A DNA stretch of 64,000 bases from Bilabrum cf. latius. Its lineage: Eukaryota. Both the position numbers and the translations under genes were made by a program. The stretch is taken from the NCBI GenBank assembly GCA_965178125.1, contig OZ237767.1, positions 434,001 to 498,000 of the forward strand, written 5' to 3'. Below, piece after piece: positions 2,727 through 59,478 of the stretch. The stretch's first letter is position 1. Every line of letters begins with the position of its first letter. The notes beneath the pieces are model-generated. The model did no database searches and was not told the DNA's origin. It saw only the letters and a program-made list of their open reading frames with translations.

Positions 2727-3552
2727 TCAATCTGTGCACCCGTCTGGCCCATCGATGGCGGCAAGCACCTGCTTGGCTATGCTTCTCACTGTTGATCCCT
2801 TGGCGAGCAACAAGCCCTCGACGTGCTCCCGAGCTCCTGCCTCCTGCAGCGCCCGCCGCGTAGAATGTTCCATCATAATCGCCTTGGATGAACTGTTTTT
2901 TACACCGCATACCTCAGCTTGTACGAGCCTCAGGATTGAAGAGAGCGCTCTCCCAACTCCTCTACCGGTAGCAGGCCTTTGGGTGGATACTAAAGTGCGG
3001 CTGCCTGCCTGCGCCGCTGATTTCAAGCCAGGCTGCACTTGTCCCCTTCTCCATTCTCGATGCACATTGGTTCCCACATCGATATCTGGCGCTTGCTACA
3101 ACGCATCCACGGCCCATTCAACTAGCCTTGCCACCCGTACGGGGCCTAGGACCTCCCATAGTTTGCGGCGAGCCCCCCGCTCGGACAGATCGGCAAGCTC
3201 ACCCAGGAGAATAGTGCCATCGTGCAGCACTTCCTTCTTTATCTGTCCAAGACGGCCTTCAGTTGTTGCGGTCATATCGCTGGCCTCCTCGACCTCAACT
3301 ACTGTTTCATGACTAGCCTCTTGCATGAGATCCCACGTCGCCCTGGCCAGCCCCTCCTGCAATACCATGGGCACGAGCACGTCCCTCCCCTACCCCCGGT
3401 GGGAAGAAACGGACAGGGCCTACCCGAGCACGTGCCGGCGCTACTCCCACCACTTTTGCTCGGCTCTTGCTAAGCTATTTTGATTTGTTGCGTCTACAGA
3501 GTGGAGGAAATTTCGGACCACTGACAGGCACCCGATGAGCCACGACGAATGG
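2727..3552 (-). pseudogene. 3' part of host gene (paralog 1) interrupted by the Ngaro insertion
   Basis: Frame open (TAG=Gln) from the element edge to TGA 2727-2729. Ends EAGAREHVEGLLLAKGSTVRSIAKQVLAAIDGPDGCTD, nearly the same as the paralog at 12036-13730. Confidence 0.85.
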
Positions 3553-3813
3553 TGGTATTAAGGAGACAGAGTCTGATTCGTTGTTGACGTCAAATGAGAT
3601 GATAAGCGTCTGTGCGATGAGGATGGCTCTGCGAAGAAGGAGAACGCCGCAACACCTTGTCCGTAGGTGGGAAGAGGAATTGTAGCGTTAGACATCGTAA
3701 TCTGATTAACGGAAGAGGCAGGCCACGAAGAGTGGAGGTTGGCATTTCTCCAGTCAATCGCCTCCATTCGGGGTGGAAGAGCTCAGGACTGACAGATCGT
3801 CTTGAATTCTTTT
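3553..3813 (+). repeat. Ngaro split direct repeat A1 (261 bp)
   Basis: TGGTATTAAGGAGACAG...CTTGAATTCTTTT; identical by eye to 10014-10274 (offset 6461). Confidence 0.95.
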
Positions 3814-3825
3814 TGTTGTGGTCTC

Positions 3826-5955
3826 ATGGCTTCGGGTGCGGGTGCAGATACAGTTCAGCCGGAGCGCTAGGGCGTGATGGCGCGGCTTCAGCAGTTTTGG
3901 CGTGGCATTTTCACGACGTTGGCCTTGAAAGAACCCGGTTTTCAACGTGCTATTTTCCTTTTTGAGGCATGCTTTGGGGCCTTGTCTGCTCCAATGCAAT
4001 GGGCATCGGTGACCGGAGTGTGTGGGTTTACCGCAGAGCGGCTTCTCGCGCTAGAGGCGCAGTGGAACGAGGCCATCAAAGGCGTACGGCGTGGGTCTCC
4101 GAAGCGCGCACAGATAATTGAATCAATGATTCGATACTTGTTGACAGCGGTGGTCACCATGAAGGGCGTGCATGGACAACCCTATTCCACGGTTCTGCCT
4201 GACTCCTTCCCGTCCTTCGCATCCTGGCTTGAACTTCCTGAGCCGACCGCAACGGCGCAGGACTCGGACACCTTCGTACTGTCTCGCAAGGCGGAGGATG
4301 CCTACGCACATGCGCACGCCGGGAGCGCGGTGTCGACCTCAAGCGCCCCGGCAGCAGGGGCTGCGGGTGGAGCTGTGGGTGGAGCTTCAGCAGGTGCCGG
4401 TGCCAGGCCTCGTGCCGGCAGCCGGCCGCGGACGGCAGGCCGAGCACCGGCCCGGCAGCCGCTGGGGTCAATTCCCCTCGATCAATCCCTTGCACACGCT
4501 CCAGGCAGTGCCCCCGGGCCTGCAGCGAGCCTTGGCGGCCTGGCGGCAGTGCCCAGCGAGTGGAGCGCTGCGGTGCGAGCGTGGCTGCATCCCTGGACGG
4601 CTGAGCGGCAGTAGGCCCTGAAGGAGACCGAGGACGAACAGATGCGTCTGTCGATGGCCGTAGAGGCTGCGTTGTTGGCAGCGGGAGGATGGCCGGAGGC
4701 GGACTCCACTCTCCGCGCCCTCGATGGGGCCATGACGAAGCAGCTGCTGGCGCTGGGACGGCGCATGCAGCATGCACCACAGAGCCAAGAGCACGCCATT
4801 ATATTGGCGATCGCGTTCCTCGAACGGGTGACGCATGAGCAGCAGCGAGCCGCCGAATCAGGCTTGGAGATGCCGGCTCTCCACCAGGTGGTCGCACTCG
4901 TCAGGCGCCATGCCAAGGAGCGGAAGCTACCGGCGGCCACGGGTGCGGGTGCAGCTGACCCGGGTGAGTCCTTGGTGCGTGGTGTGGTGTAGTCTGATGT
5001 GGTGTAGTCTGCGTTTGTCCCCGCTTCGTTACTCCGTGATCACGGGCCAGGCCAAATCAAAGCCACTGAGTTCCGGGGGATGTTCGTTCAGATCGCGAAG
5101 GCGGAGCTGATTGCAGCACTGCAGGCGAGCAGCGACTGCCCCCCGCGGATGTCGTTAGCAGCTACCTCCAAGTACCTTACGAAGGCGGCAGGCATCTTGG
5201 CCTCGGCAATCACCGGGGATGACGAGCGCATCAAGAAGAGCTGGGCAGACCTGCTCCAGCTCAAGAGCGATGATCCGCTATTTCCTGATCTCGCGGTGCC
5301 CAGACATGAGGACTTGGTGCACCCTCGGCCGTTCGCGCTGTTCACCTACGCACTGGTGCGGGCATATGCACGGGCGGTTACAGCAGTGGTGGAAACGTAC
5401 GCCACGTCAGGACCTGCCTGGCCGACCCCACCGGCCCAGTCGATGTCGCCGTACAGGCCTGAGGCGGATGTGGAGGAGTTTCATGCCGGTGCGACAGCAA
5501 TCACGCAGTCCCTGGCGTCCTGGGGCAGGCAGCTGTGGAAGCTGCAGCTTCTGGCGCGCACTGCAGGCGGCAGCTTCGGCACAGGGCTCCAGACGTCTCG
5601 TGCAGCAGCGAAGGACGTGTTCACTGCCATCGTGCTGACCGCGCAGGGCAAGATGGGAATCGCAGTGCCAGCGATTCGCACCAACAGTCAGGCCGATATG
5701 ATGGCGGCGAGGGACCAGGTGCACACGCTGATCACGGCGTACCTCAAGGGCGATGACCTTGAGGACTCTGACCCGCTTGAAGGCGTGGAGCCTGGCCGCG
5801 TAGTGCAGGTCATCCGTGCGTGCTTGTGCCCAGAGGGCCCGCACGGCATCGGACCAGCACTGCTGAGCAGCACGCCACAGGGCCAAGCACTCGGGACGGC
5901 GGCGGCAGTGGCCCAACTGGAGAAGACCATCGAGCTCGCCCAGGGCTCCTCATGA
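3826..5955 (+). CDS. Ngaro ORF1 (gag-like by position), ~709 aa with TAG=Gln
   Basis: ATG 3826 just inside A1; in-frame TAGs at 3868, 4612, 4990 and 5005 join track ORFs 3874, 4642 and 5080; ends TGA 5953-5955. No recognisable zinc knuckle. Confidence 0.75.
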
Positions 5956-8937
5956 AGGCCAGCACGCCCGTGCCGCCACAGCAGGTGGCGGCCGGGCAGG
6001 CCTTCAAGGAGACGGCGGCGCCTCTACACGCAGGAGAGGCGCCGCCTCCGGCGACTACATGCACGGCGCCTGGAGCAGGGGCTCAAACGCTGTGTTCGGG
6101 AATGGAGGCGGGGCCGTGCTAGAGGACTTCTCTCACCTCTGGTACAACAGGGCCTGTCCTCCCGTGGGTAGGATTGTGCGCCGGTCGCTTCGGTGACCGG
6201 CTTCTCGGGATGGCTTCAGCAACGGACAGTTGGGTCGGGGAACACTCAACAGCTGAATGAGGAGCGGAACGTACACGACGGCAGTTTCGGACGGCAGGAC
6301 GTGGTCACTAATGCAATTGGGCAGCGGTGGTCACAGTAGCCACGACGTCATCGTCAAGTCAGCGGGGAAGTACCAGCGGAGGGTGCAGCAGCAGTGCATG
6401 CGGCCCAGGAGATCCGTGTCAGCTACCCTGCAGCATCGACTACGTCAGCAGCGTTACCAAGGCTTCGTCCACGCACCCCTACGCCACGGGTGCGCGACCA
6501 GGGCCAACGTGACCCTGACTGGCAGCTCTGCAAGCCAGTAGTGGACCGTAAGCGGCCCCTGCTGTCCTTCGCAGCGTGTCAGGTGCTACATCGAGGCATC
6601 GGGAACAATCAATCCCACGCCTTGGTGGATCCCACTGCCGGGGGCAGTGGTTGGGTCCTCCGAGCCTGGAGCTCGGAGAGGTAGGGCGTGAGTTCAGATC
6701 TGAGCAGTTCTCCATCGGAGGAGGACGAGCTGCTGGGCTCAAGCCAAGGAAATACGTGGGGCACTTCAGACTGGGCCGAATGGCTATCCGCCTCGTCTGT
6801 CGTGCCAGTGGAACCGTGGGTTCCTAGCAGTTGGGATGACTCAGCTGCGCCATCGCAAACGTGGGCAGCCTGGATGCGATCCATGCAGGATGCGGAGGGG
6901 CGCAGTCGTGCCAGAGAGGCACCGCCAGCGCTTGGTAGACAGCACCAGCGACTGGTGGCCCACCTGACAGCGGACCCCATGGTGCTCACGGGTGACCCCG
7001 AAGCAGCACGCGCCACCAGAGCGAAGCAGGTGCAGTGGGCTACGTACCTGCGTGCAGCGTGCCCGCCTCGTACCTTCCGAGCCAAGGACTGGAAGGCCAT
7101 GTCACCGGCTGAGCGGACGCTGTGTGGATTTGCCCACGGTTTCCCGATGGGCCGCACAGCAGCTGTCCAGCAGCAGGTCAAGCTGCCGACAAACTCCATC
7201 CCGACTGAGGCTGAGGCTGCAGTGCACTGCGAGCTGGGAGCCAGCCTGCGTGAGTCGCGTAGGTTGGCCATCGCAGCGTCATCTGCACCGAGCACCCCGG
7301 TAAGCGCGGTGGTTGCGATCCCTAAGAAGAAGGTTGGCGACTATCGGCTCTTGGTAGATGCATCGGACAAGCGGGCGGGTACCCTGTTGGGGGCCAACGT
7401 GGCAGTCGAATACGAGCGCTGGACGAGTGCCCCGATGGCATCGATCGGCGAGCTGATGCGCAAGGCCGTGCGCATCTCGCAGCACACCTCCGAGCCCCTG
7501 GCGGGCCTGACAATTGACCTCAGCAAGGCCTTCTGGCAGTTCCCGCTGGCTGTTGGTGACATTCCGTATCAGCAATTGCGCATCGGCGACATGGTGCTGC
7601 TCGGCACGCGCCTCGGCATGGGCAACAAGAGCAGCCCTGGTCACGTCACCACGGCGACGACATGCTTCGGTGACGCCTTTGAGGAGCGCTGGAATTCCGA
7701 TCCTGTGCGGCCCACGACTGCAACGTCGACCTTCGTGGATGATTTTGGTTTAGTGGCACCGTTGACGCGGATTGACCACTTGGCCATGCAGTTCGTGCAT
7801 GATGCTGCGCGAGTGGGCCTCCAAGTCAGCGAGTCGAAAGCACTGGAAGTGGGCACCCCGGGCCCTCGGTTCGATTTCCTAGGGTACACGGTAGCGCTGG
7901 ATGAGTTCAAGGTGTACGTGCAGCCGTCCAAGGTCACGAAGGCGGTCGGGCTCATTGACGGCATCTTGGGGGCCACCCAGGCTGGGATCCGTCGGTCAAC
8001 GGGAGAATCGCTGGTGGGCCTGCTGTGCTACGTGGCAGAAGCCATCCTGCCTGCCAAACCGCGCTGCAGACCTCTGTTCTCGTGGCTGCATGCCAACGAG
8101 CACGCCTCGGTACTCTCCGTTCCAGCCGAGGTTCAGAGGACCCTGCGATGGTGGCGACATGCCCTGCTGCACCAGGATGGCCGCTCGTTCCCGCGACAGC
8201 ACGATCCCGAACGCGATCCAGTGATGTTCACGGACGCATCGCTGCATGGATGGGGTGGCTACTTGGTCTGGCCCTCAGGTGCCACGTAGGCCATCTACGG
8301 CACGTGGCCGGATTCTACCTGCCTACTGTCCAACGACATCTCGGCTCTCGAACTCGGATGCATTGAGATCCTGTGTGATCATTGGAAGAACGAACTGCGG
8401 GGACATGTGTTGCTTGTGCGGTGTGACAACTCCGCCTCTGTGCATTGTTTGCGTCGTGGGTTTTGTCGTAGTGTCCGCATGGCTCGCATCCTCGCTGACC
8501 TGTTCACCACCCTCTGCTCCCACGACGTGTAGGTTTGGAGCCGGCACATACCAGGGTTAGAGAACACCTGGGCCGACCGCTTGTCCAGGGAAGGTCACCC
8601 GACAAACTTGCCGCCGCACTGGGAATCGGTGAGGGAGCTCCCGACGCCTACGAGGACTTGGTTGAACTTGCGGCCATCAAGGCCGCCTCGAGCATCGAGG
8701 CGAATGGCACCACGGCACTTCGGCACTGGGCAGCGTACGGCCGCAGATACGGCCTCGACCTGGCGCCACCGGCCTTTGGCTCCATCGGTCCGGCACGCAA
8801 CGAGGCCTTCGAAGTGGAACTCGGCAGATTCATCACGTACGTGGCGGCGGCCGAGCCGGGCATCAGCGGCGCCTCCGCAAGCCAGTACGCAGCGCAAGTG
8901 GCGTCCTTGTACAAACGACTAGGAGGAGTCGCAGTAA
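5956..8937 (+). CDS. pol: Ngaro ORF2: reverse transcriptase + RNase H (start uncertain; first ATG 6874)
   Basis: RT motifs YRLLVD, IDLSKAFWQ, LGMGNKSSP, FVDD, FLGY. RNase H motifs FTDAS..WGG, ISALE, CDNS, HIPGLENTWADRLSR lie across TAGs at 8287 and 8530. Ends TAA 8935-8937. Confidence 0.92.
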
Positions 8938-9785
8938 AAGGACTCGGTGACTTTGGCCATGCAGTGGCCAGGCACTACACGGCAGCCAAGCCAACCCTTG
9001 CGAGTCTGCACCGCACGCCCATCCCGTTGTCGGCAGTGCGGCGCTTCTTTGAGTTCCAGCCATCCACCCCCGGCGAAAGTGCGGCCTAGTTGGCGGGTGC
9101 ACTGGCCTTTGGGGGGACCATGCGCCTGGGCGAGGCCACCGGAGAGGCACGGGCTGCCTCTGACCCGCATCGCCTCAGGCATGTATCCTGGGCAATCGAG
9201 GACAATCAGGTGATCAGCTGCTCCCTGCACCTGCGGTTCACCAAGGCGGGTGGACCAGCCACGGTGGCTATTGCAGCCCGATCCCCTGTGTAGGTGGACA
9301 AAGGCGGGGTACAGGGCAGCACATGCTGCCCTGTTTACCTTCTCGTCCGGCACGTCGTGACAAGGTTGACCTCGGCGGGAATCCCGGTCACCTCGCCCCA
9401 CCACCTGCACAACGCCTGCCAGAACAGTCAGGTGTTGTTGTTCCCGGAGATCGCATCGCAAGGTCGCCGTAAGACGCGGCACATCGTCGCAGCCGATGTC
9501 GTACGCCTGGTGCGGAGCTGTGCAAGCCACCACGATGATGCGAGTGGGTGGCATGGGCACAGTTTCCGCATCACCAGCACCACCACAATGGTGCGACTGG
9601 GCATCGAGCACGGCATTGTGCAGCGTCTTGGACGGTGGGCTTCCACCAAGAGCATGAACACCTACATCCGGCAGGAGGCCGACGGGCTGCCAGCGATCGA
9701 TATTGGTTGGACGCACCTTGAGCTGCAGCGAGCACCACAGGCGGCGCTGCTCGAGGCGGTGGCCCAAGCTCGGGCGTCCGACTAA
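8499..9785 (+). CDS. Ngaro ORF3: tyrosine recombinase (start uncertain)
   Basis: Track ORFs 8535, 9090 and 9294 share one frame joined by TAGs at 9087 and 9291. Catalytic pattern GTMRLGE (R), HSFR (HxxR), LGRWAS (W), MNTY (Y). Ends TAA 9783-9785. Confidence 0.9.
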
Positions 9786-9867
9786 TCCCAACTAACTTGG
9801 AGACACTTTACTTTGCTTCAACGAGACCACCCTCTGCAACCTCCCGTAAGGAAGATATGGTAAGACA

Positions 9868-10013
9868 TGGAGAATTCGTTGTGTGTCTCCGCTGGTGGAC
9901 AAATCCATCGGTGGATTCAGGCACATGGCGACGGCTCTGTGTTCGATGCCATGTCTGGTTGTATTTGGGTGGTTGAGTCTGTAAAAGAAGCTTTCATGGA
10001 AGTCACGATGTCA
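9868..10013 (+). repeat. Ngaro split direct repeat B1 (146 bp)
   Basis: TGGAGAATTCGTTG...CACGATGTCA; identical by eye to 10291-10436; abuts A2. Confidence 0.95.
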
Positions 10014-10274
10014 TGGTATTAAGGAGACAGAGTCTGATTCGTTGTTGACGTCAAATGAGATGATAAGCGTCTGTGCGATGAGGATGGCTCTGCGAAGAAG
10101 GAGAACGCCGCAACACCTTGTCCGTAGGTGGGAAGAGGAATTGTAGCGTTAGACATCGTAATCTGATTAACGGAAGAGGCAGGCCACGAAGAGTGGAGGT
10201 TGGCATTTCTCCAGTCAATCGCCTCCATTCGGGGTGGAAGAGCTCAGGACTGACAGATCGTCTTGAATTCTTTT
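10014..10274 (+). repeat. Ngaro split direct repeat A2
   Basis: Copy of 3553-3813. Confidence 0.95.
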
Positions 10275-10290
10275 CCCACCCGCCCGGGCC

Positions 10291-10436
10291 TGGAGAATTC
10301 GTTGTGTGTCTCCGCTGGTGGACAAATCCATCGGTGGATTCAGGCACATGGCGACGGCTCTGTGTTCGATGCCATGTCTGGTTGTATTTGGGTGGTTGAG
10401 TCTGTAAAAGAAGCTTTCATGGAAGTCACGATGTCA
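10291..10436 (+). repeat. Ngaro split direct repeat B2 (element 3' end)
   Basis: Copy of 9868-10013; separated from A2 by the 16-bp spacer CCCACCCGCCCGGGCC. Confidence 0.95.
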
Positions 10437-10876
10437 CTACTAGTAGTACGGGAGGAACCACTGGGCGGGCCCTCTCCCTCGCCGACGGCCAAGGACCTTC
10501 TCATAGACCGTAAGGCCTCTCGAAGAATTTCATTGTCTGAACGACCTTCCAGGATCGCTACTGGTTCTGCTCGCGAAATCTCACGGTGTGCTCCGGAAGG
10601 ATACTATCCTAAGATGCAAGAATGTGCTACTTGCATGGCGATATGGCTCCCGTGATTGCCTATCTGTCCCACATGGACATTCGAGGAGGCGCTTATTAGT
10701 CCTATTATGCTCCTGCCACAGCTTGCATCGATGCTGGGCAAAAGAAATAGGCCGTGATGCTGTGATCGCTCACCCATCTACGCTTGAACTGTTGCAAGCC
10801 CCATGGCTCCGATGATTAGCAGCACAACACCAGTGTGGATACTGGACCCCTAGACTGGATCTAATGAGCTCCTCAT
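10437..10876 (-). pseudogene. 5' part of host gene (paralog 1) interrupted by the Ngaro insertion
   Basis: ATG 10876, MRSSLDPVQGSSIHTGVVLLIIGAMGLA...ILEGRSDNEILREALRSMRRSLAV, aligns with paralog ILYGRSENEILREAVRSMRRTVAV. Joins 3552 in frame if the element is removed. Confidence 0.85.
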
Positions 10877-11343
10877 TCTTCAGCTTAGATTGAACTTACG
10901 AAACGCAATCGTGCAATTTGCGTCCGATTGCTGTTCCTGACGGGGTGGATCCCTTAGGTACGTAGCCCCGCACTAATCTAATTGTAGTATTGTCTTTGTT
11001 TCAAAATGTTGCCTACTACTATAGATCAAGGCGATTCTGCCGTTTTGATTGGCCACAAATACAACACTCTCCAAGTGCTACTGGCGTTGCACAGTGCTAC
11101 TGGCGACGGACCGCCACCACCATTGGGCGCATCACCTCGTAGTTTAGCTTTCCTCATTCCTCCACCTGTCCAAACCCAATAGATTGGAACATGCACAGAA
11201 ATAGATCTAGCACTATGATCCTAACGCCGTATGGGGTTCGGTGTTGATGCCAGAGTGAGAGCGCGTGAACGTCTCGTTGGGTTCCGCTGGCGGTTTTAAT
11301 CTTCTTCGCTGGCGGTTACAACCGGGAAGGTACGGCGGGTTCA

Positions 11344-11950
11344 TGTTATATGTACTCGGACATCAGGATTGAAGCGACAGGGAGCAGAGGTAAGCCGGAA
11401 GACGAGGTGGGTGCAGGAGGACAGGAGGTGGAGAAGAAGAGGGGGGCACCGGCACAGGCGACGACAGTGCGGTGTCAACAGGGAGAATACAACGGGAGGA
11501 AAGGGGGCTCCAGGTGCAAGGCACGAGGGAGACGCGGGTGGCGGCGGGCTGCATGGCCAGCAGCGCGCAGGGCCAGCAGGCGGGTGGACAGATGGGGCGC
11601 ACGGCAGGTCGGCCAGGACCGGCGGGTGCAAGCTGAAAGGATAGGGCCAAGGTGGCAATGCAGGGAGCAAAGCACACGGTCCCTAGGGCGGGGAACAGGA
11701 ACAGGAAGCCATGTAGCAACGAGGCCAGTCGCGTGCATTGGGAAAGTGGCGTGTACATTCGTAGTGTCAGATGAAAACCGCATTCAGGTGGACCGGTGAA
11801 GAACCAGTCGTTCGGGGTGAAGCCCAGTGGGTCCGCGGGACCGGAGGTTATCTTTTTGGTAACTGCCAACAAGTGAGGATTGCAGCAGCCGTAATGACGG
11901 GCCAATGGGTGTGGTTGAAGGAACAAATCTGATCTGCAGTCTCGGTTCAA
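11344..11950 (-). repeat. ~610-bp element X, copy 2 (inverted)
   Basis: Reverse complement of 2108-2719. Confidence 0.9.
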
Positions 11951-12035: not shown

Positions 12036-13730
12036 TCAATCTGTGCACCCGTCTGGCCCATCGATGGAAGCAAGCACCTGCTTGGCTGTGCTTCTCACTG
12101 TAGCGCTCCTCGCCAGCAACAAGACCTCGACGTGCTCCCGGGCCCCCGCCTCCTGCATCGCTCGCCTCGTACTGTCTGCCATACTAGCCTATTCATCGCC
12201 CGGAGGCCAATCCCTTCTGCATGTCTCAGTGCGCACCAAGTTCAGGAGCGACATTAGTGCCCCTTGAAGCCTGCTGCCCGCCTCATTGGAGGTGCCATTG
12301 CGGGTGGTGCCCGCCTCAGGAGAGGTGCCATTGCGGGTGGTGCCCGCCTCAGGAGAGGTGCCATTGCGGGTGGTGCCCGCCTCAGGAGAGGTGCCATTGC
12401 GGGTGGTGCCCGCCTCATTGGAGGTGCCATTGCGGGTGGTGCCCGCCTCATTGGAGGTGCCATTGCGGGTGGTACCCGCCTCAGGAGAGGTGCCATTGCG
12501 GGTGGTGCCCGCCTCAGGAGAGGTGCCATTGCGGGTGGTGCCCGCCTCATTGGAGGTGCCATTGCGGGTGGTACCCGCCTCAGGAGAGGTGCCATTGCGG
12601 GTGGTACCCGCCTCAGGAGAGGTGCCATTGCGGGTCAGGTTGTCCTCTCGCTCACGCTGCCACGCACCCACGGCCCATCCAACTAGTTTTGCCACCCGCA
12701 CGGGGCCCAGCACCTCCCACAGTTTGCGGCGAGGACCCCGCCCGGATAGACCAGCAAGCTCTCCCAGGAATGCTGTGCCATTGGCCAGCACACTCTTCTT
12801 GATCTCGGCAACCACGCTTACGCCCCCACTGGTCGCATTGCCCATGCTTGCATTCCCACTGGTCGCATTGCTCATGCTTGCATTCCCACTGGTCGCATTG
12901 CCCATGCTTGCATTCCCACTGGTCGCATTGCTCATGCTTGCAATCCCACTGGTCGCATTGCCCATGCTTGCATTCCCACTGGTCGCATTGCTCATGCTTG
13001 CATTCCCACTGGTCGCACTGCTGGCCTCCTCGATCCCAACTACAGTATCACGACTAGCCTCATTCATGAGATCCCATGTTGCCTCAATCAGCCCCTCTTG
13101 CGCCACCATGGCCCGCAGCAAAACCCCGCCGCGCCCATCGTGTGAAGCAAGGGACAGAGCCTGCCCGAGCACTTGCCGCCTATGGTCCCACCACAGCTGC
13201 CTGGCACTTTCAGAATCGGTCTGATTGAGTCGCACTCCGAGTCCAGGCAGGAAAGAGGCTCCAAATAGCCTCTCAAGCCACCAGCAACGCTTTTCGGCGT
13301 TGGGCGGGCCATTGCTCACGGCCACAGTCCTCCGCATCGACCGCACCGCCTCCCGTAGTATCTCATTCTCTGACCGACCATACAAGATGGCAGCGGCTAG
13401 TGCTTGCCGAGTTTCTCGTGATTGCTCAGTAGGGTGCTATCGAGAGAATAAACACGATTGTTTGACTTTCGCTGCGCTTTCGCTAGCAAAAATCCCACTT
13501 TGCTACCCCCGTGTAGTCATAATTGAATTTGATAATGTAATCATATCCTTTTTGCAGCCAGATTCGATACCACGCGGAGCAGACGCGTTGATGAGAAGAT
13601 CTCGAGAGATAACATCAGCACGCCTTGTGGCGAGCACTACAGCTCCAAGTATCATCACAAACATACACACACGCACTTGACCACCGGAAATTGGATCCGT
13701 GGATCCCGTCAGGCTTAAGATATGCTCCAT
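12036..13730 (-). CDS. Predicted secreted or membrane glycoprotein with tandem repeats (intact paralog 2), ~564 aa
   Basis: Track ORFs 13503-13787 and 12189-13385 are joined through TAGs at 13503, 13437 and 12189 to TGA 12036-12038. Hydrophobic N-terminal CMFVMILGAVVLA. Frame is open upstream to ATG 13880. Confidence 0.8.
12275..12635 (-). repeat. Coding tandem repeat, 33 bp x ~11 (RNGTS[P/N]EAGTT)
   Basis: Directly visible near-perfect units with no spacers. Confidence 0.95.
12825..13017 (-). repeat. Coding tandem repeat, 30 bp x ~6.4 (ATSGNASM[S/G]N), alternating as a 60-bp dimer
   Basis: Directly visible CATTCCCACTGGTCGCATTGC[C/T]CATGCTTG units. Confidence 0.95.
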
Positions 13731-14288
13731 TTCCCACCAGTTTGGGCTGCTGTCCGTGGATGGTGGTTCCACACGTGGAGGGTCCAATATAAGCTCTTCA
13801 CGAGTCGGTCGGGCATAGTTTGCACCCTTGCGCTATTCTTGGTGTTTAATAGTCACACGCTACACTTTGTTTGTAGGCATTTTCAGAGCCAGTCACCGTC
13901 AAGATGTGTTTGCCCACGGAGTAGCACTCAGGCCAAACCGGAACCTCTACGTGCAGCGGAAGATTCCGAAGAATCTCTCTCTGATCAAAAACTACACGTC
14001 ACCAGCAGTGCCACGCTGCGAGCGATGCTAGGAGTTGGGTCTGATTTGAGTGACCACGTTGCAGAGACCCGTCAACGGGGTCTACGACATGAGCTTCGTC
14101 GCTAGGCAACGGAGGAAAACGAACCCACTGCTAGAGATGCTCGAGAAAGAGAATACCTTGCAATTTTTCAGAAAACTGAGGGACTGACATTCAATAAGCA
14201 TGAATCTCAGAGTTGGAGCTGGACTTGGTGGATTTGTTGGACTGTACTGCTTGCAGTGGCATTGCTATCGATCCGTTTCATGGTGACT

Positions 14289-15038: not shown

Positions 15039-15049
15039 GATCCGAGTCG

Positions 15050-18000
15050 ATGGCACGTTACGTTACACGCCGCATGATCGATATCCCCACTAAGAATTTG
15101 GCAAGCACAGCATCATTCTGGCTTTTCTCAACAACCATGACCATGGCTTCGATTGTGTTGCTGCTAGTAGCATTGTGCAGTTCTTCCGTGGAGACGGTAG
15201 CCGAAATCGAGGGCAAGCCCGATTTGAGTGCGCCTGAAGCACAAACAGAGTATCCTGAAATTGCCGCACACGATTGCCTGGATCGATTACATGATGGGAC
15301 ACTGTGGTCCTTGCTGTCATCCTGGATAGACACTCGCATAGAAGCCAGCTAGAAGGTATAGCTCTCCAGGGTACGTAACTTGACCAGTCTAGCCGTGGAG
15401 TGCATGGATCCAGCGAGTTATTTGCTTAGGTATAAAGTAGCACCAATTATGGTGCGATTACTCCGGTCTAAATACGATAATGTTGCCAGGGAAGCTGCAG
15501 TAGGCATCGTATCCATCGTTCAAGGTGACAACAAGAACTCGTTCGCCTTCATCAGTGATCAAGAAGTGCTTCAATCCCTCGTGAATTTAACCCAGAGCTA
15601 GTTATAGACTGGTATGGCAACGATTGCCTCGCAATCCTGTGGCATATTGGCAGCCAGAGCCGATGCTATCGCAGCAATTTCTGAGGCAGCTGGTGCCACC
15701 CAGATATTGATGGCTGCCAACGCACACGGAGCCCTGGTGCATGCAGGCGGGCAACTTATAAAGCTCATAAGATAGCTGGACTGCGCCGCCGAGCATTTGA
15801 ACGGTTGCTACCGCGCGGCATCCTCGGTGGCGCGCGCTATGGAGGCGATGGCGAGGAGTAACACCAACTTCAGCACAAAGCTTAGCATGTTACGCGCAGG
15901 TGCCGTGCCTATGCTTTTCGGCATATTGAACATCAGCGACTCTCGGCAGTGCATGGCCCAAAGGGGGTCGACTGAAGGCACAGGTGGTGCAATCATCGAT
16001 GCAGCCGAGGCCCAAGTGGCAGCAGCAGATGCGCTGGCTCAGCTGGTAGAGGACATGCAGGAGCAGTCTGCGCCCGTCACGAGATATGAGAGACGATTTC
16101 AGCAGTGTTACACGCCGCTGTCGACCGTCCGGGGAGCATTTTCCAACGAGTCCTTCTTGGCGGTAATCGGGGCCAGGCAGGAGACGTGCAGGCCCAAAGA
16201 GACAGACAGGCGAGCTGCTGTGGCGCCTGACATGTACCCATGCATGGACAGAATAGACATTGACGTTGATCAGGAGCACTGGGAGCTGCACGACATCCTT
16301 AGAAGGACAATTGCCAGGAAAGCAAGCGCAAGGGTGCTGGAGCAAGCGCTCGTGTCTCCCTATGGACATGTGGCAGAAAGAGCCGCCCGGGCCATTCACC
16401 ATATCGCAAGGAGGGGCGGCACACTTCGGACGGTCTTCCACTCGCGCCCAACGCTTGTGCGGTAGCTCGTGCATATGGTGAGGAACGGCACGCTGGGGTA
16501 GCAGACCTGGGCGGCTGCAGCTTTGGGCAGTATCGCGGACGAGCATGGGAGAGCCGACGTGCTGCGGGTGTCCCCATCGCCTGCCATTGCAGTAGCTGGG
16601 ATGCTCACTCGGATGGACCAGTGCTTTGCAAGGACAAATGCAAGCTCGGATGGGAGTACCCCGGGCTTGCCTGGTCAAGGCCGGTACGGAAGAGAGCTGT
16701 AGACGTGTCCCCATCTCCTGTCCAACGCCACTGACGAGGATATCGAGTATGCGCAGGGCATGGCTGCGCGTGCTCTGTCTACGTTCATGCAGGCAGGGTA
16801 CCGGGGAGTGCAGGCTTGGTCCAAGCCGCTAGTTCGAGATTGGCCCAGAAATGAATCCCAACCCAGTGACTGGAAGGGGTAGCCACCGTCTGTTGCAGTG
16901 AGCCAGGATACGCTTGCAAATGTATCAACGGTAACAAATGACAACATTTTTGCCCGGGTGAATGCATCTACAGTCATAGCTTCGCTGCTACGGATGGCAG
17001 AAAACGGCCGCAAGAACGTCTCGTTTGGCCGGCAAATGGCCTTGTCTGCCCTGGCCAGGCTGGTACAGCACGGGTCTTCGCACCACGTCAGGGAGGTGCT
17101 TCGCCAGGGTGGTGCCACGGCAAACTCTAATAGCAACAGCAGCACGCTGGTCCACAGATTGCTGGACAGGCTCCAGCGATCTCCTTGGGACAATGCCGCA
17201 AACTAGCGCACGATGATGCACGCTGCACTTCTTGCAGGTCAGCTTGCTAAGCGAAGCAAACATGTAGCCTGGCAAATCGGCAATGCAACCGAAACTCTGA
17301 ATGAGCTCATTCGACGCTCTGCGAAGGCTGAAGGGCGCCTCAAGCTGCGTTTGCTGCTTTCTATCGCATGGCTCTCTGAGTCCAGCGACTCGATCGCGTT
17401 TATGAACAAGACCGGATTCCTGCACGACCTAGCCAAGCCGATACTGGCGCGAAGTGACAGCAGCAGGTACGGCTCTGAAGCAGAATGCAAGCGAGCCGTT
17501 CTCCTCGTTATTGGGGCGGCGGTGCAGCGAGAAAGAGGCAGGTGCTACCCGTGGGTGGTGAACAGCGGCATTGTGCCATTGATCACTGAGAAGCTCCGGA
17601 GCAGCAAGTGGATCAGTATTCAGGACACTGCAGCTCGGGTTTTGTTCACAGTTACAAGAGCAGACAAGCTTGGAGAGCGTGTGGTGACGACTCGGGACTT
17701 CGGTGTGCTCGAGGCAGTCGTGGATTGGCTGACAGGCCACATCGAACACGGCAGGGATGTCACGATGGGGAATGCTTCGACCTCTGCGCAAGCAAACAAA
17801 TGGATTAGGTTTAGTCCCGTTGCATCTACTCTTGCGGGCGTTTTACACGTAGTGTCAGCTGGGAACCGCCCGGTGATCCATCGGGCGCTTGACAGGGGCA
17901 TCGTTCCCACCCTCTTACGCATGCAAGACCAACCCTTAGTTGCCCCTGTGGAGTTTGCCACTGCTGCACTTGGCAGCTTGCTGACTGGGAACAGCACGCA

Positions 18001-20623
18001 GGTCAAGCGAATTATGGGTATCAAACGATCTAGCGCTAGCGCAAGTGTTCATACAGAGCTACCAGCGATCTCACACGTGATGGTTATGGCACCTCGTGAG
18101 TCTCGCAAGGTATCTACCCGACAAGTCTACGACGAGAGTGCCGTTGTTGCTGCAATGAGTCGACTGCTGTGGGATCCCGACGCCGATATTGCAGAACGAG
18201 CTGCTATGGCTCTTGGCTTTATCGCATCGGAGAAAGGTGACGAAGCTCGAGCAATTCTAGAGCATGGCAAGGAAGCTGTTGCATTCAGGCCAGGGGCTCG
18301 TTTGCTGTCTCGTTTGTTTACTCAGCTGGCCTCCTACCGCGGGGATGAGAGCGGGCAGGCTGCCAAGGCTATCGCGTGGCTGTGCAACGCTGAGTAGGAT
18401 TTAATATAGGAGGTGCTTCAGTTCAACGAAGGCCGGATTTTGCCCCGGCTGTTGCGGCTGGTGCATCGCAAAACAGGCACCGCTGCCCAGGAAGCCCTCC
18501 GGGCCATCGGAAACCTGATGAAGCATCAGCCGAAAACAGTGGGACGGCTCGTATCTGGAACTTGGCTGGGACTTGGTCATAGATTTGTCAATCACACGAT
18601 GCAAATCATTGAAACTGATGGTACAATCCACCACTCCGACCGAAGTGCTAGGCTGCTTCGATTGGCCCTGTGGGCGGTGGATCACACGATTACCGCGAGC
18701 GATATGCTTAAGCTTGATTTTGAGCGACAAGGGCTGTACACGTTGCTTGTCCGACTCACGAACGAAGCGCAAGATAACTGGACATTTATAGAGAGACTTC
18801 GAGTGGACGCTGTGGTCAACAAGCTGCGGCCAGAAGGTGAGACAGAGGGTGAACTGAGGAACGAGGACGAGACCCACAACAGTACACAAGCTCTTGCCAA
18901 CTTAATGCAAGCAATCAGAGACCTGCCCCTTATGCGTATGCTTGACATGGATCAAATAGTGAACGATATCAGGAAGCACGCTGACGATCCCCAATCTGCA
19001 ACCATTGCCGCCCAACTCTTGGGGCACATGTTTTCCTCTGGGGACTACGTGTAGAAGGACATGCTCGTGACAGACGGTAGGCTCATTCCAGCGCTGCTTG
19101 ACATGGTAGTCTCGGGGAATCCTGATGTTTCCCAGCGTGCGCTGGAGAGCACAGAGGTTATTCTCAAGGTGCAGGGGGGGGGCAACTACACAGCCGCAGT
19201 GCTGGGCGCCGGTGGTCTCGACAGCCTAGTCACGGCACTCAACTCAACGGATGCAAGATCAGTGGCACTGGCTGCAGTGTGCATCGGTCACGTGTGTGCC
19301 GACGTGCAGGCCACCAGGGCAATTATCGCGGAGAGAGGTGGCCTTGAGATGCTTGGCTAGGTTATATAGAGTGGTGCAGGGGGTGTCCTAGGCACCACTG
19401 CGGCGCTCTACGCCATCGATGCGGTGGTGACAGGAAATAGGGATCGATCGAGGCATGCGGCTGAGCTGGGACTAGCCCGTACAGCCATCAGTGGTGTGCT
19501 GGAAGGCATAGGCCTGCTGACTGGTGCTGTCTCAAAGGATCGTAATCGAGCTTAGCACATGATCCGACATGGTGCTGGCATCCTAGGCCAAGTCCTAAGG
19601 TACCTGCCGGTCACGCAGAGCGGTGCAAAGAGCACGGACATCATCCAGGTGCTTGGTTTAGCTATCAAGACGCTGAGGTAGGCCCATATGGAGGGCCAGA
19701 AAGCAGACGACCAGGCAGTGTACGAATCCGCCATGGCCCTTGTGCACCTTGCCAATGACACGATCGCGCGCAACCTGCTGCAGAGGGAGGGCGGCCTGGA
19801 TTAGCTGCATGCTCTTTCGCTGGGAGATGGTCCAATGCGCAGTGAGGACAGATTTGCTCTTAATGCAGCCATGGATGCTGCTGGACTAGGCTCAAGCGTC
19901 TGGGATCGTGTGGCAATGCTGTTTGGCTTTGGGTCTGGCAGGGCAGTAAGGAACGTGACAGGCTCCATGGTCATTGATTTAACGCAGAATGATCAGCAGC
20001 ATCAGCAACTGCGCAGCATCGCCAAAATTCTTGGCTCTACGTCCGATTGGCTCAGGGAAGCGAATGCGTCCGACAGCGCGAGCAACGCAACACTCCGGAT
20101 GGTGAGCAATCTCTAGGAATCTATCAAGAAGGGACGAGAGACGTTGTAGTGCGACTAGAACCTGCTACATAACTTGAGCACGATCCTGGTCGACATTATC
20201 AATGCCACGGATCTTCCCCACAACCGTAGTGAGGGGCGGCACACGCCGGATACCTGCCCTGTCCCTGATAGTGCAAAGATCAACGGCGCCAACTACTTTG
20301 CGAACATATGCGATGCGGGCGTGTCATCAGCGGAATCGTAGCAAAGAGTATGCCTTTTAAACGCTCAGGAAACTGCGTTGGTTGGGTCTAGCAGTAAAGC
20401 GCCGGGCCAGCAGGGTGCAACAACGGCGGCACCTGGTGCAGCAGGTGACCGAGACATTGGCCCACTGCGTACGCCACAACAGAGACTTGCTTCGGCTTGC
20501 CGTGAAGTCTTGCGGGAATTATCCGGAAATGCGCCCAAATGCAGCGACTCATCGGAGTCCGCTCATCCGCAGGATCTAGATCCGGATAGCGAGACGCATC
20601 GTACGGATCGAGATCAGAACTAA
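15050..20623 (+). CDS. Large armadillo-repeat protein with predicted signal peptide, ~1830-1857 aa
   Basis: Nine track ORFs in one frame, joined by about 22 TAGs with no TAA/TGA until TAA 20621-20623. ARM-like units (GAVPMLFGIL, GIVPLITEKL..AARVL, GIVPTLLRM, ILPRLLRLV..ALRAIGNL, GGLDSLVTAL). MASIVLLLVALCSS at ATG 15143. Confidence 0.88.
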
Positions 20624-25656: not shown

Positions 25657-25940
25657 TTGCATAGCTTTCCCATCCCGTGGCACTTCGCCTATCTGGATAG
25701 CGCCCATATCAAGGATGAAATTCCAGGGCGATGGCCATCGGCACCTCTGGACAGCATGGCAAAAGTCCGCACGCCGAACTACCAACGCTGAAACCGAAGG
25801 TTCGGCAACCGGATCTAGATCCAGGCTGAATCATCCAGCTTGGTGCCTTCGTTCCTGTGTTCACAAATTGACCTTGCAGCATTGGAAGGCCACGCGCTTC
25901 AAAATTTCAGTCCAAGAGTCGCTCTTAACGGATAATAGTC

Positions 25941-28900
25941 ATGGATAGGCCCACCTTCGAAGGCGGCCATATGGAGGCAATTCATTGCTGGGAAGGCCTA
26001 AGTCGCGTGTCAACCGGTAGTGGTGCCGATAGATTGGAGCATCGATAGGTCAATTGCTTGTTTGACAGGTTGAAGATCGATGAAGCCATTCGATAGTCAC
26101 CTGAGCACTTGCAAAGAGTTCTTCAGAAAGCGCACGGTGGTGTACCGGTCGCACGCATTACTCCTTCAGTTGTAGCCAACACTGAAGTATCAAGCAACTT
26201 AACCTTCTTCTCTTTGCATTCTGGTCATACTTAGCGCAAGTTCTCGCATGGAGATGCACAAATTCAGCGTGCTCGCGTGTATGAAGCAGCCCAGCAAGGA
26301 TCGGAACCGCGCCCACAAGAAAACAAAGTATTCTCCGTCCAAATTGGCGTACAAGTACCTTCCTTTGCTAAACCTGGCTATTACACAATTCGTCCCAGGA
26401 TCTCTATCGAGCTTGAGGGCGTAGACGGCCAAATCGTTGTGAAGCTGCCTGACTTGTATGTCGCGTCCGACAGAAAGCTGCAGGAGAAGCTGCTGGCTGT
26501 TCAGCTTGCAACAGATTCTAGCAGCAATCTATCCATTGCAGGAGCAGTAGCTGCCCTCCATGCCGGCGAAGATCCTATGGTGCCGGTACCCGAAATCGGC
26601 GCCAAGGAGAAGTTCACCGCGGGGTACACATCCAACGACAGGACTACAGAGAACGAGAAGTTCAACGCAATGAGGAGCAAGCTGTCTGGTCCGATGCTTC
26701 CCCGTGGTGGATTTATGTCTCTGATGCCAGAAGAAGAGGAAAGAGTCTCGAAGCGGGAGCAGGATGTGGCAGTGCCGATGGTGGCACTCGACACGCTCGC
26801 GGCTGCTGGTGCCATGCAGGGACCCACGCTGGCAGCAGGCCACATCGCCACCGTCGAGATGATCGTGGATGACATTGAGTTCGCACGGGAAGCACAATAG
26901 AAACGTTGCCGCTCCATGGGCGGATTTCGCGTGCTCGGCGTGTCGGACGACAAGTCGCGCGCTCCTAAACGATTTTATCTGGAGAGCCAGGACGAGTCTG
27001 GTGATTCCGACGGTGAGAATCTGGAATTGTGCACAGCATATAGAGGGAGGAGGCCAGTACGGCATCATCGACGTCGGCCTCATCGACGTCGTCCCTACAT
27101 TAACTCCTTTGTATGGCTGCACAAACCAGGCGGCACCAAGGATCCTTCTTGGTGGGATGCTGCAGCGGAGGAGCCAACCCATGTCTCGTTGACCCTGGAA
27201 GATCATTTTGGGGGTTGCAACGACTAGCACAGCTTGAGAGTGTGCAAGATAATTAAGAAAAAGAGTCACCTGTGCCTTGCAGCCGGCAAGCACGTCATGC
27301 GCCAAGTATAGAGGGACCTTTACGAGCAATGGCAGGCATCCCCGGATGGTTCAATATACGCTTCGGTGTAGGAGGGTGCCAACTAGTACACGCATGAAGC
27401 GAGACGTCTTGCATGCTGGCTCATGCAGCAGCATCGATCTAGTGAGATGAACGACCCGGCAATCGATCGTCTGGTCAATGGCTACCCTGCAGTGGCTCTC
27501 AATTTTGCCATGCTGGAGATGGCCCACCACATAATGGTACGAGAGCTGCCAGCTGATGGAAAGCCAGAGATAGGCGGTAGTGTAATAGCGACACAAATGC
27601 GCGGCAACACGCGCCGTTGGCGATAGACAGAGGAGGTCATCTGGTGCCTGGAGGCCGTTTCGGTGACTGGGGAGTGTCGGAGAGCCGCCGAAGCCTTCGC
27701 GTACATCCGCAACAACAACCATAAAATGGCACGAAGTGAGCTTATCCAGTTAGAAGCTTAGTTGAAGCGCTCCAATCCCACCGCACGCGCTGGAGTGCCT
27801 GAATTCCGACGTGCACTGCAGGCTGCCACTGCTGGGCAGCCATCTTTCTCAGCGCGACACAGAGAGCTCGAGCAAAGGCACAGCGAGATGAGCTAGCTAT
27901 TTGGTGCATTCTCAGGCCCCAAGGATGGACGCCACCTGAACTCCGTGCAGCATGGATTACGCACCATCCTTCAAAGGGTCGTCCCCCAGATCTTGCGAGG
28001 TGTCTTGCATCCCAAGCCGCACGACGTGGTGCCGCCAGAGGCAGCAGCTGAAGCGGCCACGGGACGCAGAGGTATCCACATATATGACGCGCTTATGCAG
28101 GAAGCCAAGAGGGCGTTTGAGATGCACACGTCACCGATGCTGCTGAAAGGGCTGAACCGGTTGCAGCACGCGGCGATCGGCATGTGCCTCAGGAGGCCAC
28201 CCGTGGCGGTGATCTACGGACCCCCTGGTACTGGAAAGACCACCGCAGTTTCGTCGTTGCTCGCGCACCTGCTGGCTGTGAAGCCAGCGGGACGAGCTGC
28301 GTCCCCCCGGGTGCTGCTCGTGTCCCAGTCGAACTTCGCCGTGGAGCTCTCTCTGTGCAAGGCTCTAGTGCGACTAGGGGAGGCAGGGCTGGCGGACGAG
28401 GAGGTGGGTTCGCTCGCAAAAACAATCGTGCGTGCATCTTCTGCGGATCGGACGCCGAAAAAATCTGCCGCCGAACTTGGCCCTGTAGCGGCACACGTAC
28501 TAAAACATGTTTCGGTGTCAGGTGCAGTCCCGTGGGATCGGCTCAGAGAGGCACGGTTTGTGGCCACCACCGTGGATAAAGCGTCCTCTTGGATATCTAG
28601 TGCCACTTTCGATGCCAATGAGGCCTAGTCCACGCCAGAACAACGAACTTTGAGTAGGAATCAAATCCTGAGTGCGTTGGATTTCGACTATGTGGTGGTA
28701 GATGAGGCCAGCCAGGTCAAGCTGGGCCAGTTGCTGCCATTGCTGCTGTCGACCCATATGGCACGTCACGCAACAAGCCTGCGCAGTCGCGAGCGGCCAA
28801 CTCGTATTGTAGGTGCGCGCGCGAGGCCAGCAGACGTGCGTCCAGACAGGCCGCCTCCAACTCTGGTCCTGGCTGGCGACCCCCGGCAGCTGGGGCCCAT

Positions 28901-30938: not shown

Positions 30939-31613
30939 AGAGGACTCGGACTCTGATTCGATCGGATATGTATGAATTTACGAACTACATTTTTGCGCTA
31001 ATCTGGATTCGAAATGGACTCTGAATAAATGCTAAGATTCCCTGTCTTTGCTGTACATTGTCTGGCAGAACCGTTCTGCCAGAATTTCGTCGGGCTGGAC
31101 CAGCTTTCATCCGCGGCCCAGGCTTGGATCGTAGCCCCTTCGTCCACTGCCACCTCCAGATTCGCAGCATGCCAATACTCCCAAGCAAGCTTGTAGAAGG
31201 CTTACGCGAAAGATGGGGCGGCCTCAGAGCAGTGCTGTTCCGCAAGCTCCAGGGCGCCAACTGAGTGCCATGCACAGCAGTCCATTTATACTCCTCAATA
31301 CAACGGCCAGACAATGTTGTAGTGATGCCCAATACACACCACATTGAAGGCAATGCAACGCAGTTTACCACGACAGGTATGGCATTGCGTGTTCATAGCT
31401 TCGTTCATCTGAATAGACTAGCGAGACCGATGGGTTTGGTCTCGCTTCGTTTACCTGAATCAGATCTGGATCTCTGTAGGATCCAAAACCTTGCCTGTTA
31501 AGGCCAACTCTCCTACTGGTACGCTAATGATTCGACGAACAAAGCGCTATGGTTGGCTCTAGGTTGAACCGCAGCCTGCTTCAGAGCAGCGTCCAAGACT
31601 GCATGCAGACCGA

Positions 31614-59304: not shown

Positions 59305-59478
59305 CTCTTTGGGAACTTTTGAGGCGGTGGGGCGTTGGCGCTGCCCAAGAGCTTGCGGTGTGATGAGCCAGTTGCGGTGTGATGAGCCAGTTGGCACGCC
59401 ACACATCCTGCATCCACAGCGCGCTGAAGCCGTAATCAACAAGTTGCATCGAATGCAATGCTAGCAACCACGCCACGC

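Follow-up and report, generated by a model that had tools for sequence, protein, structure and literature searches.

A Ngaro-like retrotransposon that very probably uses the UAG=Gln code of its host, Bilabrum cf. latius

The stretch of DNA analysed here is a 64,000-nucleotide segment of Bilabrum cf. latius (GenBank assembly GCA_965178125.1, contig OZ237767.1, positions 434,001 to 498,000 of the forward strand), hereafter the window, in which all positions are counted. Positions 3553-10436 of the window are occupied by a segment that is bounded by split direct repeats and, when TAG is read as a sense codon, holds three long open reading frames (ORFs): a presumed Gag-like ORF1, an ORF2 with regions for a reverse transcriptase (RT) and an RNase H, and an ORF3 for a tyrosine recombinase (YR). 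The features of this segment and of its surroundings are listed in Table 1. The segment is very probably a single, recently integrated Ngaro-like YR retrotransposon that is written in the genetic code of its host, in which UAG specifies glutamine.

The repeat finder returned two pairs of direct repeats that are each 100% identical, namely A1 and A2, of 261 nucleotides (nt), and B1 and B2, of 146 nt. Their order along the element is A1-[ORFs]-B1A2B2, where B1 joins A2 without a gap and a unique spacer of 16 nt, absent from an earlier note on this DNA, separates A2 from B2. Perfect direct repeats of this length cannot be due to chance. The GC content is 61-65% in the element, 54-56% in the immediate flanks and 51-68% in the host genes of the window, with a genome value of about 60%. 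Neither further copies of the element nor solo AB repeats were detected in the 64-kb window, and a blastn search with the element gave self-matches only.

With TAG taken as sense, the open frames extend over 3793-5955 (720 codons, four TAG), 5956-8937 (993 codons, six TAG) and 8499-9785 (428 codons, two TAG). ORF1 and ORF2 belong to a single frame that is split by one TGA at 5953-5955, and ORF3 lies in the -1 frame. No Pfam match was obtained for ORF1, whose only matches among the PDB sequences are low-complexity linkers of single-chain Fv (scFv) constructs at E values of at least 0.06; an AlphaFold2 model of ORF1, built on a four-row alignment, is all-helical, with a mean pLDDT (predicted local distance difference test) of 36.1, too low for use. 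Residues 455-646 of ORF2 match Pfam RVT_1 (E 2.7e-5, 24.4 bits), and ORF3 matches Pfam Phage_integrase with 27.8 bits (E 2.4e-6), which exceeds the cut-off of 27.1 bits. There is no Pfam RNase H match on ORF2 itself, but its relatives do match RT_RNaseH.

An exhaustive HMMER search with ORF2 yielded 2646 homologues with E<=1e-3, 323 of them with E<=1e-10, and the best 150 were aligned for a comparison by column. A column was counted as conserved if its consensus reached at least 70% among at least 100 homologues. The element fits the consensus in 31 of the 36 conserved RT/RNase H columns, all catalytic residues among them: D595 and D596 of the RT agree with the consensus of 106 of 107 homologues, and D760, E799, D824, D874, N870, S877 and R878 of the RNase H correspond to near-invariant consensus residues (141-148 homologues). 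The homology of ORF2 to distant relatives becomes convincing only from about residue 330. Word-indexed searches returned one weak match for the RT/RNase H region, three matches for short forms of ORF1 and two homologues of the recombinase, P0155 (58% identical) and P0156 (55%); a search of the ORF3 recombinase against the PDB sequences returned nothing at E<=0.1. In the alignment with its homologues, the recombinase retains all of R209, K249, H354-x-x-R357, W380 and Y389. Judged by these conserved sequence motifs, the element appears to be intact.

The earlier note, which was made from the letters alone, had already placed the segment among Ngaro elements, and the A1-[ORFs]-B1A2B2 architecture, the gag-like/RT-RNase H/YR order and the lack of a Dam domain agree with that identity. 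The absence of differences between A1 and A2 and between B1 and B2, which it had judged by eye, holds over the whole length of both pairs, and a script that lists the in-frame TAG codons gives exactly the 12 positions that it had named, with two of these in the RNase H (ORF2 codons 778 and 859) and two in the recombinase (ORF3 codons 197 and 265), as it had also stated. Its description of three ORFs that keep their frames stands as far as the open frames are concerned, but two of the three, ORF1 and ORF2, are one frame divided by a TGA.

Table 1. Positions in the window of the parts of the element, its in-frame TAG codons and the surrounding host ORFs
Feature	Position	Strand	Remarks
Interrupted host ORF, 3' part	2727..3552	-	Collinear with paralogue residues 223-618
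Repeat A1	3553..3813	+	261 nt, 5' end of element
ORF1, presumed Gag-like	3826..5955	+	ATGs at 3826 and 3877; stop TGA 5953-5955; frame open from 3793
TAG	3868..3870	+	ORF1 codon 26; between first and second ATG, may be 5' untranslated region
TAG	4612..4614	+	ORF1 codon 274; P0162 begins at first Met after it
TAG	4990..4992	+	ORF1 codon 400; P0162 ends at residue 399
TAG	5005..5007	+	ORF1 codon 405; P0160 begins at first Met after it
ORF1 stop and two GC-rich hairpins	5953..6052	+	Candidate programmed readthrough signal
ORF2 (pol)	5956..8937	+	In ORF1 frame; first ATG only at 6874 (codon 307)
TAG	6169..6171	+	ORF2 codon 72, N-terminal extension; translated only with TGA readthrough
TAG	6337..6339	+	ORF2 codon 128, N-terminal extension
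TAG	6682..6684	+	ORF2 codon 243; P0006 ends at residue 242
Reverse transcriptase	7318..7893	+	ORF2 residues 455-646; F-V-D-D at 593-596
RNase H	8218..8595	+	ORF2 residues ~755-880; catalytic D760, E799, D824, D874
TAG	8287..8289	+	ORF2 codon 778, RNase H, variable polar site
ORF3, tyrosine recombinase	8499..9785	+	-1 frame relative to ORF2; stop TAA; first ATG 9120
TAG	8530..8532	+	ORF2 codon 859, RNase H
TAG	8920..8922	+	ORF2 codon 989, tail overlapping ORF3; probably outside translated frame
TAG	9087..9089	+	ORF3 codon 197; invariant Q column in 2/2 homologues
TAG	9291..9293	+	ORF3 codon 265; R in both homologues
Repeat B1	9868..10013	+	146 nt, downstream of recombinase ORF
Repeat A2	10014..10274	+	261 nt, directly abuts B1
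Spacer A2/B2	10275..10290	+	Unique, 16 nt
Repeat B2	10291..10436	+	146 nt, 3' end of element
Interrupted host ORF, 5' part	10437..10879	-	Aligns to paralogue residues 64-202
Host ORFs, examples	15041-20623, 25929-30938, 35014-44766, 54042-57149, 57280-59478		Within 12036-63999

Long ORFs that emerge when TAG is read as sense are not confined to the element. Elsewhere in the window they encode, among others, a 1860-codon Arm-repeat protein, a UPF1-like helicase, a 3250-codon EF-hand protein, a COQ8/ABC1 family protein, a protein that combines GH32 and PAN domains, and a protein kinase. Eleven long host ORFs, about 13,400 codons in total, contain 95 in-frame TAG codons and no internal TAA, and they end in TGA (nine) or TAA (two); by construction, none of them can end in TAG. 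If TAA were also a glutamine codon, used in proportion to the CAA:CAG ratio, one would expect about 29 TAA within these ORFs (P ~4e-13). Moreover, when TAA is read through as well, the two TAA-ended ORFs grow downstream by no more than 34 and 6 codons, and one of these two also grows upstream by 19 codons, extensions so slight that TAA is not a sense codon inside these ORFs. The code in which TAA is a second glutamine codon (NCBI table 6) is thus out.

The identity of the amino acid was assessed by translating TAG as X and searching the host proteins against the PDB sequences. The X in the F-x-Q-Y-N-P motif of the GH32 protein is Q in all three printed alignments, and the X in the L-S-I-Q-D motif of the COQ8 protein is Q in both of its alignments. 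The remaining three alignable host sites are variable (G/K/K, D/A/A and T/T/T), and five more X fall in unaligned inserts or ends. We conclude that, in the nuclear code of the host, UAG is glutamine, and UAA and UGA remain stops. An Rfam scan of the 64-kb window found no family. The same rare pattern, with UAG alone reassigned to Gln and the other two stops retained, has been described in Iotanema spirale (Panek et al., 2017, PMC5304391). The host examined here encodes COQ8, and its genome has a GC content of about 60%. COQ8 is a protein of the ubiquinone pathway, which we take to be a sign of an aerobic host, in contrast to the anaerobic I. spirale.

The element shows the same distribution of stop codons across frames as the host genes. 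In its coding frames, TGA and TAA occur at 0.47 and 0.94 per 1000 codons, respectively, exclusively as ORF ends, whereas TGA reaches 13.6-23.5 per 1000 codons in the other two frames; altogether, in-frame TGA and TAA are about 30-50-fold scarcer than in the other two frames. TAG, by contrast, is not depleted (5.6 per 1000 codons in frame versus 5.6 and 2.8 out of frame). The in-frame density of TAG in the element (5.6) compares with 7.1 per 1000 codons in the host genes, TAG makes up 11.3% of the glutamine codons in the element and 14.8% in the host genes (Fisher p 0.45), and the codon frequencies of the two are correlated with r 0.86.

Several of the 12 TAG codons can be evaluated individually. 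Recombinase codon 197 corresponds to an invariant glutamine, present in both P0155 and P0156. At RNase H codon 859, glutamine is the commonest residue (33 of 144 homologues, followed by E in 22, R in 16 and T in 15); the homologue P0021 (69% identical) has Q at this position in the alignment, and so does P0007 (35%), by reading of its sequence. At RNase H codon 778, the 126 homologues most often have E (31), then Q (22) and R (12). The TAGs at 4612, 4990, 5005, 8287, 8530, 9087 and 9291 are securely coding; the other five of the 12 (3868, 6169, 6337, 6682 and 8920) are at places where translation is uncertain.

Close relatives of the element in public protein sets are fragments only, and their ends coincide with the TAG codons. 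P0006 (93% identical) corresponds to ORF2 residues 147-242 and stops directly before TAG243; P0162 (89%) covers ORF1 residues 284-399 and stops directly before TAG400; P0160 (98%) runs from the first Met after TAG405 to the same ORF1 stop; and P0161 (92%) starts at the Met right after TAG26 of ORF1. To judge from these protein sequences, fragment ends of this kind are the expected output of a standard-code gene caller applied to copies that share these TAGs. Between copies that have diverged so little, the sharing of TAGs is by itself weak evidence.

The insertion site is consistent with a recent arrival. In-silico excision of 3553-10436 joins a minus-strand host ORF (10879-10437 and 3552-2727) of 423 codons, with seven TAG and no TGA or TAA. 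Both halves of this ORF are collinear with a neighbouring paralogue at 12039-13892 (minus strand). The element therefore interrupts a host protein-coding gene that has not yet decayed, and this host ORF, which remains open over the empty site, lends independent support to a recent insertion. No target-site duplication is seen at this single insertion, where the flanks, GACGAATGG on the left and CTACTAGTAG on the right of the element, share no bases. Insertion mediated by a recombinase produces no target-site duplication. The host sequence just left of the insertion (3540-3555), CACGACGAATGG, resembles the junction between the B end and the A start of the element, CACGATGTCA/TGG (10000-10016 and 10425-10445). 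For this single insertion, the likeness may be a hint of a target preference of the recombinase.

With respect to classification, Ngaro elements are defined by split direct repeats in the order A-pol-B-A-B, an RT/RNase H and a tyrosine recombinase (PMC8547959, PMC3783388), and internal repeats that lie downstream of the recombinase are a further criterion (PMC4157794). The element has this order, with the RT at 7318-7893, the RNase H reaching to about 8595, the recombinase ORF to 9785 and B1 starting at 9868. The three ORFs gave no Pfam match to Dam (PF05869, at E<=0.01), protease or rve. By structure and domains, we classify the element as Ngaro-like (order DIRS), an assignment made by these structural definitions.

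Other types of retrotransposons fit less well. A DIRS1-like identity is contradicted by terminal repeats that are direct, the sole inverted repeat found being outside the element, and by the lack of a Dam domain. PAT-like elements would share the split direct repeats, but Dam is missing, which would still be compatible with a secondary loss of the methyltransferase (MT). A VIPER-like identity disagrees with the position of the recombinase, which follows the RT/RNase H. VIPER-like elements, with kinetoplastid hosts, have the gene order gag-like/YR/RT-RNase H. Finally, a long terminal repeat (LTR) retrotransposon is rejected in the absence of protease and rve matches and with repeats that are split into A and B parts instead of forming LTRs.

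Compared by description only, the element resembles the Ngaro elements of Cafeteria burkhardae (Hackl et al., 2021, PMC8547959), which likewise have an A1-[ORFs]-B1A2B2 structure, a length of about 6-7 kb and a high GC content, along with an ORF1 that is Gag-like by position, an ORF2 with RT and RNase H, and an ORF3 for a YR with HxxR and Tyr. Unlike these, the element described here resides in a host gene and not in an endogenous virophage, uses UAG=Gln codons and has ORF1 and ORF2 in a common frame across a UGA; the excerpts of that paper do not mention the term 'genetic code'. With the Ngaro elements and the order DIRS in general (Muszewska et al., 2013, PMC3783388; Szitenberg et al., 2014, PMC4157794), it shares the lack of a methyltransferase, a protease and a DDE integrase, the A-pol-B-A-B repeats, and a recombinase ORF that is frameshifted and overlapping. 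The 16-nt spacer between A2 and B2 and the Met-less, Arg-rich stretch of about 300 codons distinguish it from these definitions. In the collection of literature searched, no paper deals with Ngaro together with the genetic code and UAG.

The Met-less, Arg-rich stretch extends from the ORF1 stop to the conserved pol region and bears on how ORF2 is translated. Over 5956-6850, the ORF2 frame contains no TGA or TAA, compared to four and six in the other two frames. The 100 nt that begin with the TGA fold with a minimum free energy of -70.6 kcal/mol (z -7.1; none of 200 shuffles as stable), and among 136 sliding 100-nt windows across the element, the one that starts at this TGA is the most structured (z -9.3 with 30 shuffles, the next being -5.2). 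The inner stem begins 10 nt past the ORF1 stop codon, and the sister P0160 (98% identical) keeps the stop itself. From this anatomy, we are inclined, by a small degree, to regard the UGA at 5953-5955 as a programmed readthrough site that would give a gag-pol fusion. Alternatively, ORF2 could start at ATG 6874, or translation could proceed via ATG 5952, which overlaps the TGA.

Given that GC content at third codon positions did not discriminate between frames, a host-codon likelihood model was used for the choice of frame. Over 3823-5800 and again over 6523-8500, the model gives preference to the frame of ORF1 and ORF2, and from 8503 to that of ORF3; beyond about 8640, the tail of ORF2 is probably in a frame that is not translated. 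With the ATG at 5952, which overlaps the ORF1 stop (ATGA), an ORF of 103 codons begins in the -1 frame (5952-6260, plus strand). Over 5803-6070, the model slightly favours this frame, which could mean that a small ORF overlaps here or could be an effect of composition.

In gammaretroviruses, gag-pol is produced by readthrough of a stop codon, which in murine leukemia virus (MuLV) is a UAG followed by a pseudoknot. The element resembles MuLV in having an in-frame stop between gag-like and pol frames and a very stable structure within about 10 nt of it. In contrast to MuLV, the stop is a UGA, UAG being a sense codon in this host, the predicted structure consists of two hairpins, and readthrough is suggested by anatomy. 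In the collection of literature searched, only two papers deal with both Ngaro and readthrough, and, judged by their titles, neither is about such a site.

The life cycle of the element is likely to be as follows. Transcription would start from the A1 side, and translation of the transcript would yield the ORF1 protein, Gag-like and helical. From time to time, the UGA of ORF1 would be read through, aided by the downstream hairpins, to give an ORF1-RT/RNase H fusion, a step that the anatomy makes marginally probable, and the recombinase, in the -1 frame, would be made by some further route. Reverse transcription would then use the internal B1A2 junction to rebuild the full ends. Such rebuilding from the B1A2 junction is the established model for the Ngaro family. 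The recombinase would integrate the product without a target-site duplication, the present copy having landed in a host protein-coding gene.

Several observations weigh against the interpretation of the segment as a Ngaro-like element in the host code, and some of them are the starting points of alternatives. The RVT_1 score of 24.4 bits is below the Pfam cut-off of 29.6 bits, the host-codon model is ambiguous or favours other frames over about 5800-6500, and the 64-kb window contains neither a tRNA-Gln(CUA) nor any other tRNA gene. The sister fragments could stem from the same locus in another strain, in which case the shared TAGs would be trivial. At RNase H codon 778, the nearest cousin, P0005 (63% identical), carries Trp, which a single transition separates from TAG, and recombinase codon 265 is Arg in P0155 and P0156, a conservative exchange that is not informative. 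ORF2 has no ATG before 6874 (codon 307), and ORF3 has none before 9120 (codon 208), which is inside the domain, beside the catalytic Arg. No X_XXY_YYZ slippery heptamer is present in the ORF2/ORF3 overlap (8480-8940), nor is there significant RNA structure at the switch (fold of 8590-8720, z -0.94), so that this copy is only putatively autonomous.

The Trp of P0005 would be accommodated if the TAGs were nonsense mutations acquired after the insertion and the element were a pseudogene, TGG being one step from TAG and every ORF being truncated in the standard code. This scenario is scarcely credible. Among random substitutions in the element ORFs, 1.8% yield TAG and 1.5% yield TGA or TAA. The 12 TAGs counted in the decay model (11 on the coding path used) would thus cost about 650 substitutions, or about 11% divergence, and with that many substitutions, about 89 differences are expected in the 2 x 407 nt of repeats, where none is observed (P ~1e-39). 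That all 12 nonsense codons are TAG, with no TGA or TAA besides the ORF ends, has a probability of ~9e-4 under decay. In addition, host genes in the window have TAG at the same density, and TAG197 of the recombinase falls on an invariant glutamine. Decay is excluded by the missing repeat differences, and the TAGs of the element are ordinary glutamine sense codons. Another possibility is that UAG is ambiguous, a stop or a sense codon depending on context, or specifies an amino acid other than glutamine, so that some TAGs of the element would terminate translation or be read differently. Such a code would agree with the finding of conserved positions at only two of the five alignable host TAG sites and with the residues aligned at element sites 778 and 265 (E/Q/R/W/R). 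However, the two conserved host sites together with recombinase codon 197 are glutamine in seven of seven alignments, and TAA readthrough adds only 6-34 codons downstream to the TAA-ended host ORFs; we consider this possibility very improbable.

Two further alternatives accept the recent insertion, the YR retrotransposon or both, and each appears unlikely to us. The first ATGs of ORF2 and ORF3, so far inside their coding regions, and the lack of a canonical heptamer and of significant structure in 8480-8940 could mean that the copy, although a recent insertion in the host code, is non-autonomous, with ORF2, ORF3 or both inexpressible and the proteins supplied by other copies. Yet the frames of P0155 and P0156, too, lack a Met where they open, some 25 residues ahead of the conserved core, which makes this look like the normal state of the family, and the ORF1 stop is kept in P0160 and immediately followed by the strongest structure of the element. 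The element could also be a YR retrotransposon outside Ngaro proper, either VIPER-like or PAT-like with the methyltransferase lost. VIPER-like and PAT-like elements share the A1...B1A2B2 repeats (PMC6681497), a Pat1 lineage that has lost its MT mimics Ngaro (PMC4157794), and Dam is carried by the weak match P0004 and by two of the 54 RT homologues scanned with Pfam (29 plus the 25 longest others, out of 150). These points are countered by the absence of Dam from the three ORFs and from 52 of the 54 scanned homologues, none of which has rve or protease, and by the location of the recombinase after the RT/RNase H and of the internal repeats after the recombinase, as described for Ngaro (PMC4157794).

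Other statements of the earlier note can be set against these results. The recoding of UAG to glutamine that it had proposed for the host agrees with TAG on strictly conserved glutamines in GH32 and COQ8, and the dependence of the element on this code, with the contrast between the decay load and zero repeat differences and with TAG as the only kind among the 12 stops. That the insertion is young, as it had put it, is supported by the identical repeats and by the 423-codon host ORF that is open across the in-silico empty site. The note had predicted that standard annotation would call such an element a pseudogene, and the sister copies are indeed annotated as pieces cut at TAGs. In contrast, its suggestion of copies nested in virophage-like elements found no counterpart at this locus: there is no virophage context, no Pfam family is found in the 10 flanking ORFs, and the other ORFs of the window match ordinary eukaryotic families or none, with nothing virophage-like among them.

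Beyond the single copy, we tentatively suggest, with somewhat less than even confidence in the proposal as a whole, that the element represents an active lineage whose expression has been refitted to the UAG-only code, with the gag-pol ratio set by structured UGA readthrough, a part that falls to UAG in gammaretroviruses, and which is locked to the host clade and spreading. The free use of UAG as glutamine in the gag-like ORF, the RNase H and the recombinase would then lock in the lineage by a genetic-code firewall, and the sister copies in independent public datasets would indicate that the refitted lineage is spreading now.

The use of reassigned codons by mobile elements is known from ciliates, for example, in the Tec elements of Euplotes and the TBE elements of Oxytricha. 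Genes with transposase domains in Oxytricha carry UAG and UAA glutamine codons (Swart et al., 2013, PMC3558436). The present element is similar in that mobile-element genes use the reassigned glutamine codons of the host, which in the case of Oxytricha was taken as evidence of residence (PMC3558436), but the Oxytricha genes encode DNA transposases in ciliates with UAA and UAG as glutamine, whereas here a YR retrotransposon uses a UAG-only code in a GC-rich genome that does not look like that of a ciliate. A resident element must use the code of its host, which is expected in principle and already known for the ciliate transposase genes (PMC3558436); hence the finding overturns no expectation. 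Its interest is modest and lies in the candidate UGA readthrough site and in a marker of the rare UAG-only code.

Within these bounds, the element would be a clear case from nature of a mobile element whose function is tied to the variant code of its host and to no other. It also provides an internal check on the host code that does not depend on host genes, because a selfish element under selection to keep its frames open can put up with UAG, but with neither UGA nor UAA. Standard-code annotation breaks such elements up, as seen in the public sister copies, which are pieces cut at TAG. The element can further serve as a test case for the idea that changes of the code may shield lineages against parasites that move horizontally. 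The UGA with its strong RNA structure, if confirmed, would be a programmed readthrough site in a YR retrotransposon.

Some additional observations concern the surroundings of the element. An inverted repeat of about 610 nt (2108-2719 and 11344-11950; 97-98% complementary) brackets the interrupted gene together with the element. Its arms lie just downstream of the stops of the interrupted gene and of the paralogue, in opposite orientation, and have no Pfam match. The intact paralogue (12039-13892, minus strand) contains two in-frame tandem arrays, one of 33 nt x 10.9 (12275-12635) and one of 30 nt x 6.6 (12825-13021), both of which are missing from the interrupted copy.

Farther away, the 3250-codon EF-hand ORF includes a perfect tandem repeat of 138 nt (36506-36873, plus strand; 2.7 copies, 100% matches) that codes for a repeated acidic segment of 46 residues and suggests a very recent expansion. 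At 31501-32328 (minus strand), a match to the EMG1/NEP1 methyltransferase spans Pfam profile positions 23-109 of 197, that is, only the first half, which suggests that an intron or a break of the frame is present; most genes of the window appear to lack introns.

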